Shown here: in pieces, positions 277-1,269 of the stretch | Layout of the letters: the number at the start of each line of letters is the position of its first letter | How positions within the stretch are numbered: the first letter of the stretch is position 1 | DNA from: Escherichia coli | Lineage (GTDB): Bacteria; Pseudomonadota; Gammaproteobacteria; Enterobacterales; Enterobacteriaceae | Reading direction: 5' to 3' (one strand) | Assembly (NCBI RefSeq): GCF_003334305.1 | Contig: NZ_QOWS01000051.1 | DNA: 4,057 nucleotides | Made by a program: the position numbers and the translations under genes | Notes under the pieces: generated by a model | What the model saw: the letters and a program-made list of their open reading frames with translations, nothing else | What the model was told of the DNA's origin: nothing | Database searches by the model: none

Positions 277-356
277 TCTCACTCCCTTATATTTATACCA
301 CTAACAATAAAAAAGCCCTCAACAAAACATCACCAACATATATTAACGATATATTT

Positions 357-697
357 TTATTTGACTAAAATAATTTCCTTATCGACTGCACCGCCAAAAT
401 CAGGAGCACCTCGAATAAAATCCAGCGTCTGGTTAATTAATTTATCAATATTACCTGATAAATTTTCAGGAATGATGCTAGATATATCTTCAAGCTCACA
501 ACCAGAATCTATAATGTCAATTAAGTTTTTAGAGTGCGATGTAGCATTCAATGTTTTTGACGTAGATGGCTTAAATATAAAACCTTCTGCCTCATCTATA
601 GATATTGCTTTTTTTCAATAGAATATAAAACACCCAACACTAAAAGACTGATAAATTTCTCTGCGTGTTCATTGCTAATACTATAATCAATTCTCAT
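357..697 (-). CDS. Small hypothetical protein encoded in two overlapping frames: ORF-A 697..596 (33 codons, ATG start) and ORF-B 608..357, joined by a -1 shift at A_AAA_AAG; fused product would be ~113 aa. Frameshifted pseudogene or recoded gene.
   Basis: ORF-A translates as MRIDYSISNEHAEKFISLLVLGVLYSIEKKQYL then stop at 596-598, with GGAG 9 nt upstream of its ATG. ORF-B (ORF track 357..551) has no ATG; its reported start is TTG and its frame stays open upstream to a TGA at 615-617. The two frames overlap at 596..614, where the minus strand reads GAA AAA AAG. No homology recognised. Confidence 0.4.
608..614 (-). other. A_AAA_AAG heptamer (A7 tract) at the junction of the two frames of the small gene; candidate -1 frameshift or slipped-strand site
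   Basis: Plus 608-614 is CTTTTTT, so the minus strand reads AAAAAAG; in the ORF-A frame the codons are GA-A AAA AAG. A -1 shift continues as GCA ATA TCT ATA GAT GAG (AISIDE...) into ORF-B. Confidence 0.35.
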
Positions 698-729
698 TAT
701 AAATTACTCCAATAAGGTTTTACTTTTAC

Positions 730-758
730 ATTAAATACTCGACCACTCTGACTTTCAA
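730..758 (-). promoter_or_regulatory. Putative sigma70 promoter for the small downstream gene: -35 TTGAAA (753-758) and -10 TTTAAT (730-735), 17-nt spacer
   Basis: Read on the minus strand in the 119-bp AT-rich intergenic region between the stop at 817-819 and the ATG at 695-697. Both hexamers match consensus 5/6. Sequence pattern only. Confidence 0.25.
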
Positions 759-816
759 AATAGTGAATGGACACTTTTCGACCTGACGCATCAAATCCAT
801 CTTTATAAACTTTACT

Positions 817-1269
817 CTATTTTCCTGAATCTACTTTACGTAATTGTTTCAATAACTGCTGATCCTTTACAACATTCCTTGTAGTGCCATTTTGGACATT
901 CCTAAACCCTCTGGGATACTGAGGAGCATCCTTAATAGACCTGTAGGTATTTCTTATTTCGCCATCCTCATCTGGCTCCCACCCTCCCGAACCTCCTGTA
1001 CTGCCACTGCCCAAACAGTTCTTCTCTTCATCCGTCAAATCCTTCCCGACATTTGGATTCTCTTTTGATGAATCATCATTTCCAAACACGCTGGAAAAAG
1101 CACCATAGGGATCTCGCCAGAATTCCATTTGACTTTGTGCATTTAATAATTCGGCTTCACCCCGCATCTCCATACTTTTCTCAATCGCATCCCCAACAGC
1201 CTCGCGATTGTTGTATATTACTATACCACCACCAATAACCACCGCTCCAACTGCCGCACCGACTAACAT
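817..1269 (-). CDS. Hypothetical protein (~150 aa) with N-terminal glycine-zipper hydrophobic segment; possible membrane-anchored or exported protein, possibly an orphan toxin or immunity component
   Basis: ORF track 817..1296, but residue 1 there is a TTG codon at 1294-1296. The first ATG is at 1267-1269 and is preceded by a perfect AGGAGG at 1280-1285 (minus), 10 nt upstream. From that ATG the protein starts MLVGAAVGAVVIGGGIVIYNN (GxxxG-rich hydrophobic helix), followed by a hydrophilic, Gly/Ser/Asp-rich region. No catalytic motif recognised. Confidence 0.5.
   Translation of the reverse strand: MLVGAAVGAVVIGGGIVIYNNREAVGDAIEKSMEMRGEAELLNAQSQMEFWRDPYGAFSSVFGNDDSSKENPNVGKDLTDEEKNCLGSGSTGGSGGWEPDEDGEIRNTYRSIKDAPQYPRGFRNVQNGTTRNVVKDQQLLKQLRKVDSGK

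Follow-up and report, generated by a model that had tools for sequence, protein, structure and literature searches.

An AT-rich block between two Rhs genes of Escherichia coli is probably the remnant of a horizontally exchanged Rhs cassette

Rhs elements are composed of a G+C-rich core and an A+T-rich core extension, and a trough of low G+C content with degenerate fragments runs downstream; frameshifts and premature stops have been described in such fragments (PMC2935791). The core extension with its downstream open reading frame (ORF), as termed by the Hill laboratory, or dissociated (orphan) Rhs-CT/RhsI module (PMC2935791, PMC3150448, PMC3967940), is the closest known system to the DNA described here. 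AT-rich xenogeneic DNA is in general silenced by H-NS and contains accidental intragenic promoters (PMC3923964, PMC7229825, PMC8894471), and insertion sequence (IS) elements are reported to be captured by H-NS-bound AT-rich DNA (PMC11335895). The Salmonella pathogenicity island 6 (SPI-6) type VI secretion system (T6SS)/rhs island is reported to be H-NS-silenced (PMC7043789), and for K-12, H-NS as well as RpoD sites obtained by systematic evolution of ligands by exponential enrichment (SELEX) are on record in the spacers upstream of rhsD and rhsE (PMC3946193). A stretch of 4057 nt from E. coli (contig NZ_QOWS01000051.1), referred to throughout as the window, contains a very AT-rich block at positions 290-820, immediately upstream of the second of two Rhs genes, here named Rhs1 and Rhs2. 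This block is, in all likelihood, the distal two-thirds of a horizontally exchanged and now dead Rhs cassette, comprising a toxin domain, an immunity gene and a short spacer.

The G+C content of 290-820 (531 nt) was 30.5%, compared with 63.6% for the 5' end of Rhs2 (1-275), 45.6% for the upstream part of the orphan tip (817-1296) and 42.1% for the adjacent IS, which confirmed the statement of the initial annotation that the block is much more AT-rich than its Rhs flanks and the IS. The composition was also atypical of the host, as had been anticipated. The 28-kb chromosomal context was 51.8% G+C and only 2% of its 531-nt segments were as AT-rich; against a value of 50.8%, the G+C content of the block corresponded to z ~ -9.4. 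At third codon positions the toxin domain and the small gene that follows it had a G+C content of 0.23-0.26, vs 0.72-0.73 in Rhs cores. Both limits of the block needed correction. The left edge was sharp and fell exactly at the ATG of Rhs2 (276..274, not 275), and on the right the low G+C content extended beyond 820 to ~965, where the toxin domain starts (277-964, 32.4%; 965-1296, 49.1%). The true AT-rich unit is ~277-965, and over either extent, 30.5% over 531 nt or 32.4% over 277-964 against 51.8% locally, the DNA has the AT content of a xenogeneic region. The block was not unique in the locus, as an AT-rich trough was found at every Rhs tip/immunity region. A second trough, of 27-33% G+C, was observed at 2451-3006 and consists of the Rhs1 immunity gene (32.6%) and the spacer up to the IS end. 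The composition of the block is far beyond chance, yet the feature itself is of an ordinary and already described kind.

Intact modules from Salmonella and Xenorhabdus were 36-39% G+C in hosts of 41-53%. Because these copies from other genera are also AT-rich, the low G+C content is inherent in the exchanged cassette itself and does not mark regulatory DNA. It is very improbable that the AT-richness is secondary, a product of AT-biased mutational decay after gene inactivation and not of a foreign AT-rich origin. The E. coli copy does lie ~5 points below the intact Salmonella genes (31% vs 36%), as such decay would predict, but the uninterrupted homologues are AT-rich already, and on this ground AT drift was rejected as the source of the composition. 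In addition, an identity of at least 99% among the E. coli copies means that little has changed since fixation, and the immunity gene of Rhs1, which is functional, has just as low a G+C content.

The block had been interpreted as an intergenic, promoter-bearing island between two genes, and this interpretation was not sustained, as 464 of its 531 nt (~87%) are former coding sequence. Read-through translation and alignment with 14 homologues located the cut-off 3' end of a toxin ORF at 697..819 on the minus strand. Here a nonsense codon (TAG, 819..817) is followed by 39 sense codons (SKVYKDGFDASGRKVSIHYFESQSGRVFNVKVKPYWSNL) and by the original stop, TAA at 699..697, in overlap (TAATG) with the start codon of the small gene, a member of the DUF3969 family. 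All 14 aligned homologues have Trp at the position of the TAG (SGKW-SKVYKDG) and run on past it to ...HYFESQSGRVFNVKVKPxWSN. The intact Salmonella copy has the identical GGAGTAATTTATAATG junction, with the TAATG and an internal GGAG. As the read-through product aligns with the homologues and the junction is the same in Salmonella, 697-819 represents the amputated 3' end of a toxin domain of ~89 aa, the proximal part of which (DGEIRNTYRSIKDAPQYP...SGK) lies at 820..966 on the minus strand and is likewise AT-rich. Judged by the alignment, the lesion is a change of TGG->TAG.

Homologues of the toxin domain were identified in Salmonella, Snodgrassella, Gilliamella, Xenorhabdus, a Syntrophomonadaceae metagenome-assembled genome and others. 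The domain forms the C-terminus of Rhs proteins (Salmonella and Syntrophomonadaceae), of a PAAR-like DUF4150 protein and of proteins from Snodgrassella and Gilliamella; the Rhs cores to which it is fused carry DPxGL. No Pfam family was found for either the 159-aa ORF or the repaired toxin domain, no NCBIfam family was found for the domain, and a PDB sequence search with the domain profile returned only noise. A confident AlphaFold2 model of the domain (pLDDT 90) gave no fold match. The ~89-aa domain has a predicted fold without a known relative, and so may carry a new toxic activity.

The DUF3969 (PF13108) gene occupies 357..697 on the minus strand (ATG 697..695, stop 359..357) and is pseudogenised. 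The frameshift previously noted in this small gene was verified, the gene being split into ORFs 697..596 and 551..357. The frame breaks at a run of seven A residues at 609..615 on the minus strand (T7 on the plus strand). A version with A8 would read ...SIEKKAISIDEAEG... and give a product of the same length as the homologues, and the repaired reading ...YSIEKKAISIDEAEGFIFKPS... is colinear with uninterrupted homologues of 112-115 aa. The frame-repaired product matched Pfam DUF3969 with E=4.8e-18 over profile positions 4-96 of 106, and RefSeq calls the 64-aa fragment a DUF3969 family protein. The break is most simply explained, from these comparisons, by the loss of 1 nt in an A8 run. DUF3969 follows the toxin domain directly, with a 1-nt overlap in Salmonella and a 4-nt overlap (ATGA) in Xenorhabdus, and was the partner of the toxin in every case (window, Salmonella and Xenorhabdus). 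This constant position across taxa would be the signature of a cognate toxin/immunity pair.

The exact A7 context was present in 575 of 606 E. coli records. Alleles with A5, A6 or A8, or with compensating insertions, were found in a minority of genomes, and some of these restore the frame. The assembly of strain SCU-152 has several extra homopolymer indels across the block, A8 at the tract among them, which suggests that some public variants in the length of the A run may be sequencing errors and not alleles.

The tract also bears on a second possibility, which we consider improbable: that DUF3969 is not dead, and that -1 frameshifting, transcriptional slippage or a change of length between A7 and A8 yields a 113-aa protein, so that an orphan immunity function is kept. 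The sequence A-AAA-AAG gives high frameshifting in E. coli, as is known from dnaX, and GA-A-AAA-AAG-CA was found in the zero frame at 609-616. A -1 shift at this site gives a product of exactly the homologue length (...EKKAISIDEAEG), with the junction peptide ...SIEKKAISIDEAEGF..., and a possible hairpin starts 7 nt downstream of the tract (fold z=-2.1). Both ORF halves are otherwise free of stops in 575/606 records, the length of the tract varies among genomes (A5, A6, A7 and A8), and at least three different alleles restore the frame. However, the loss of one A from an A8-G run creates the heptamer automatically, and its presence is therefore not evidence of selection. The tract is absent from the homologues in Salmonella and Xenorhabdus (AAAATAAGG, AAAAAACTC), each of which is one uninterrupted ORF, and the two-frame arrangement is not conserved, since all homologues from outside E. 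coli are single ORFs and the rare E. coli alleles restore one. The hairpin is weak as a candidate frameshift stimulator and is accounted for by the coding sequence, since its arms, which encode the conserved residues DEA and KPS, recur in the Salmonella gene that has no frameshift. No Shine-Dalgarno (SD)-like stimulator was found 10-14 nt upstream of the tract. The cognate toxin is dead, translational coupling has been lost 120 nt upstream, and part of the length variants derive from homopolymer-indel-rich assemblies such as SCU-152. Were the protein nevertheless made, carriers would keep orphan immunity against an Rhs toxin family of Salmonella and other gut bacteria, the self-toxin having been discarded.

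At its upstream end the dead cassette is severed from an Rhs core by the IS. The glycine-zipper/linker part of the Rhs C-terminal tip (967..1286, minus strand; 49% G+C) is followed by an ISAs1-family element (H-repeat/ISEc1-like) at 1287..2580 on the minus strand, which is 97% identical to K-12 ydcC. The transposase of this element is itself split into ORFs 2435..2256 and 2156..1299, and RefSeq marks an internal stop. The IS end maps to 1287, the point at which the orphan tip loses its core, and the tip in the window has neither an Rhs core nor PxxxxDPxGL, both of which were removed at this end. Positions 965-1288 are 93.5% identical at the DNA level to a full-length Rhs gene from another strain (WP_021516938), whose product reads ...DPLGL, then 27 aa, then VGGPPGMLVG..., and continues into a different toxin domain, with a different 125-aa immunity gene. 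The point at which toxins are swapped is the linker NPNVGKDLTDEEK, at ~1059-1020 in the window. DPLGL and the core are kept before the same toxin domain in Salmonella proteins and in a metagenomic Logan contig, SRR12298635 (1-1186). In this contig, the cassette from the linker NPNVGKDLT (window ~1059) onward is joined to an intact core end (...DPLGL...). The IS is missing there and the N-terminal segment of the tip differs, but the TAG is still present; the A run is A6. The occurrence of the TAG without the IS suggests that the nonsense mutation arose before the IS insertion or independently of it.

A foreign, exchangeable origin of the block is supported, as the initial annotation had proposed in suggesting horizontal acquisition. 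The pair formed by the toxin domain and DUF3969 recurs outside E. coli, in Salmonella, in Xenorhabdus and in bee-gut bacteria, where its G+C content is again low (36-39%). In E. coli, the 1-kb unit of tip, DUF3969 and spacer was at least 99% identical in ~600 of 5426 complete genomes (~11%), and the TAG was present in every copy inspected. Comparison with K-12 gave no homologous region: the block is absent there, and only the IS end matches. Aligned from end to end, the window was 99.8% identical to strain A7 of E. coli and to ~85 further complete genomes. The order of the locus is hcp, vgrG, Rhs1, immunity gene, ISAs1, tip, DUF3969 and Rhs2, all on the minus strand; the tip thus follows a full-length rhs gene, is oriented like it and lies inside an rhs/T6SS locus. 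Genomes resembling strain A7 carry the module and Rhs2, with a K-12 RhsE-type tip and ydcD, in the T6SS-1 locus near yafV. In most carriers the module and Rhs2 occupy the RhsE/RhsH locus, in the vicinity of pptA, and Rhs2 has dsORF-h1 at its end. The presence of the module with Rhs2 in two different Rhs loci implies exchange between Rhs loci.

The sole non-coding part of the block is a spacer of 80 nt (277..356, minus strand) with the SD sequence GGGAG at 286..282. It was found in 605 E. coli genomes, in all of which DUF3969 and the Rhs start are joined to it. In Salmonella, DUF3969 is followed by a homologous spacer of ~90 nt and then by another Rhs start (MGGKPA...), as seen in three records (junctions at 2888-3420, 256-790 and 233-700). 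The conservation of this junction in Salmonella implies that the tandem Rhs-Rhs layout predates the rearrangements in E. coli. The Rhs genes downstream of the Salmonella junction are likewise split into several ORFs. The possibility that the spacer is the usual vgrG-rhs leader was rejected on comparison, as it is unrelated to vgrG-rhs spacers. Terminator and RNA-fold checks of 277-372 gave no terminator and no significant structure, Rfam at E<=1 gave nothing in the block, and a repeat search yielded only short chance pairs.

The initial annotation had placed a candidate sigma70 promoter and an extended -10 element in the block. Both strings are present at the coordinates given. The first, TTGAAA(758..753)-17-TTTAAT(735..730), spans 730..758 on the minus strand inside the former toxin coding sequence; the second, TGGTATAAA, lies at 292..300 on the minus strand, with the hexamer TATAAA at 297..292, 15 nt before the Rhs2 ATG. 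It is unlikely, however, that they are working promoters, for the small gene and for Rhs2 respectively. TTGAAA-17-TTTAAT is the only 10/12 match on the minus strand of the block, is without A at position 2 of the -10 and reads TTTAAC at this hexamer in the intact Salmonella copy. TGGTATAAA is without T at position 6 of the -10 and has no -35 at 16-18 nt; of this motif, Salmonella shares the TATAAAT and not the TG. When 277-820 was shuffled with dinucleotides preserved, one or more 10/12 matches arose on the minus strand in 26% of the shuffles and one or more extended -10 elements of the TGn+5/6 kind in 49%, and -10-like hexamers occurred at 38.6/kb in the block vs 3.6/kb in the adjacent Rhs sequence. 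A promoter scan, which requires A at position 2 of the -10, gave no minus-strand promoter in the block, and over the whole window it gave 11 sites vs 8.8 +/- 2.9 expected. The motifs are real strings but occur at chance level, and hence are no evidence of function.

The case for initiation within the block has other grounds. The architecture of the spacer before the Rhs start is conserved in Salmonella together with the TATAAAT, and Rhs2 is not preceded by vgrG and has an upstream region unlike vgrG-rhs spacers, so that it may need a start of its own. Experiments in Salmonella have demonstrated promoters inside rhs ORFs, though not at this position (PMC7043789), and the spacers upstream of K-12 rhsD and rhsE bind the RpoD holoenzyme in SELEX (PMC3946193). 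Against this, a start ~7 nt past the extended -10 would fall on or inside the SD sequence GGGAG, 6-10 nt from the ATG, and no terminator separates Rhs2 from upstream transcription. Promoter-like motifs in DNA this AT-rich should be given no regulatory reading without transcription-start data.

Silencing of the block by H-NS is plausible by analogy with other AT-rich xenogeneic DNA. The high-affinity H-NS motif TCGWTWAATT had no exact site in the block; degenerate matches to it cluster there, as expected of any AT-rich DNA, and were not used as evidence. The K-12 rhsE spacer, for comparison, is 36% G+C. The IS beside the block fits H-NS-linked IS capture, a coincidence that is only suggestive. 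Literature searches gave nothing specific on chromatin immunoprecipitation of H-NS over rhs tips or on DUF3969.

These data appear to be consistent with the following history. The cassette would once have terminated the upstream Rhs protein of a tandem Rhs-Rhs array, with a toxin ORF that ran to 697 and was translationally coupled to DUF3969 through the TAATG, the 80-nt spacer and the next Rhs gene coming after. Three lesions have inactivated it in E. coli: insertion of ISAs1 at 1287 took away the Rhs core and the first ~27 residues of the tip, TGG->TAG at 819..817 cut the toxin domain short, and the A8 run (609-615), by losing 1 nt, broke the immunity gene. The DNA of the block would most likely be coated by H-NS, keeping the accidental -10-like hexamers quiet. 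Transcription of Rhs2 would in that case come from read-through or from weak starts within the spacer. Some points weigh against the interpretation of the block as a dead, silenced cassette. Identity of at least 99% across ~600 genomes has no power to separate neutral decay from retained function, and the rare frame-restoring alleles could hint at residual selection on the immunity gene. The labels "toxin" and "immunity" are putative and derive from architecture and synteny, and the coating of the block by H-NS in its carriers is presumed from the behaviour of comparable DNA.

The interpretation has consequences for annotation. Between the pseudogene of the ISAs1 family and the second Rhs gene, RefSeq lists two separate products, a "hypothetical protein" (WP_000960005) and a "DUF3969 family protein" of 64 aa. 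In ~600 complete genomes of E. coli these two would be better annotated as halves of one decayed cassette, and the apparent 119-nt intergenic gap between them as former coding sequence. The association also links Pfam DUF3969 to a putative immunity role beside a conserved, uncharacterised Rhs toxin domain.

Of the remaining features of the window, the end of the full-length Rhs1 gene lies at 4057..2984 on the minus strand, and the gene in the immunity position of Rhs1 (130 aa) lies at 3006..2614 on the same strand; searches of Pfam and NCBIfam gave no match for the latter. The 5' end of Rhs2 (1..276, minus strand) encodes a PAAR-type N-terminus (MSGKPAARQGD...), and the RefSeq annotation of Rhs2 in strain A7 is RHS repeat-associated core domain protein. 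On the plus strand, an 86-aa ORF with a TTG start (361-621), probably spurious, is antisense to DUF3969, and a promoter-like site, TTAACG-17-TAAAAT, is found at 343-371. In K-12, an annotated small protein, YncO, is antisense to the analogous immunity gene ydcD.

When compared with known systems, the block resembles H-NS-silenced xenogeneic DNA (Singh 2014, Warman 2020, Forrest 2022) in being ~20 points more AT-rich than its host, in its very high density of -10-like hexamers relative to the adjacent Rhs sequence and in adjoining an IS; it differs in having no exact high-affinity H-NS motif but only degenerate matches. The A7 tract contains the identical A-AAA-AAG heptamer of the dnaX-type programmed -1 site, in the correct frame, and a -1 shift would restore DUF3969; unlike that site, it has no SD stimulator at the proper distance, its hairpin is weak and its arrangement is not conserved in homologues. 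The linker ...NPNVGKDLTDEEKxxLGG... matches that of CdiA-CT from E. coli NC101 (PDB 5J43/5J5V) with E ~3e-6 to 2e-8 (given for 5J43 as ~1e-6 to 1e-8). However, this shared linker (window ~1059) is outside the AT-rich block, and the toxin domains of the tip and of CdiA-CT are not demonstrably related.

The orphan Rhs-CT/RhsI module offers the closest comparison. As in that system, the block follows a vgrG-linked rhs gene of full length and shares its strand. A small cognate gene comes directly after a variable C-terminal toxin domain, the G+C content is far below that of the core, and decay has been by a premature stop and a frameshift, as in the fragments from Serratia. The copy in the window differs in that it is without the core and PxxxxDPxGL, ISAs1 having cut ~27 residues after the motif, in that it is directly upstream of a second full-length Rhs gene and not at the end of an array, and in the inactivation of both of its genes, that for the toxin and that for immunity. 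Rhs tips of high AT content and degenerate orphan modules have long been described, and the block is of a kind already known.

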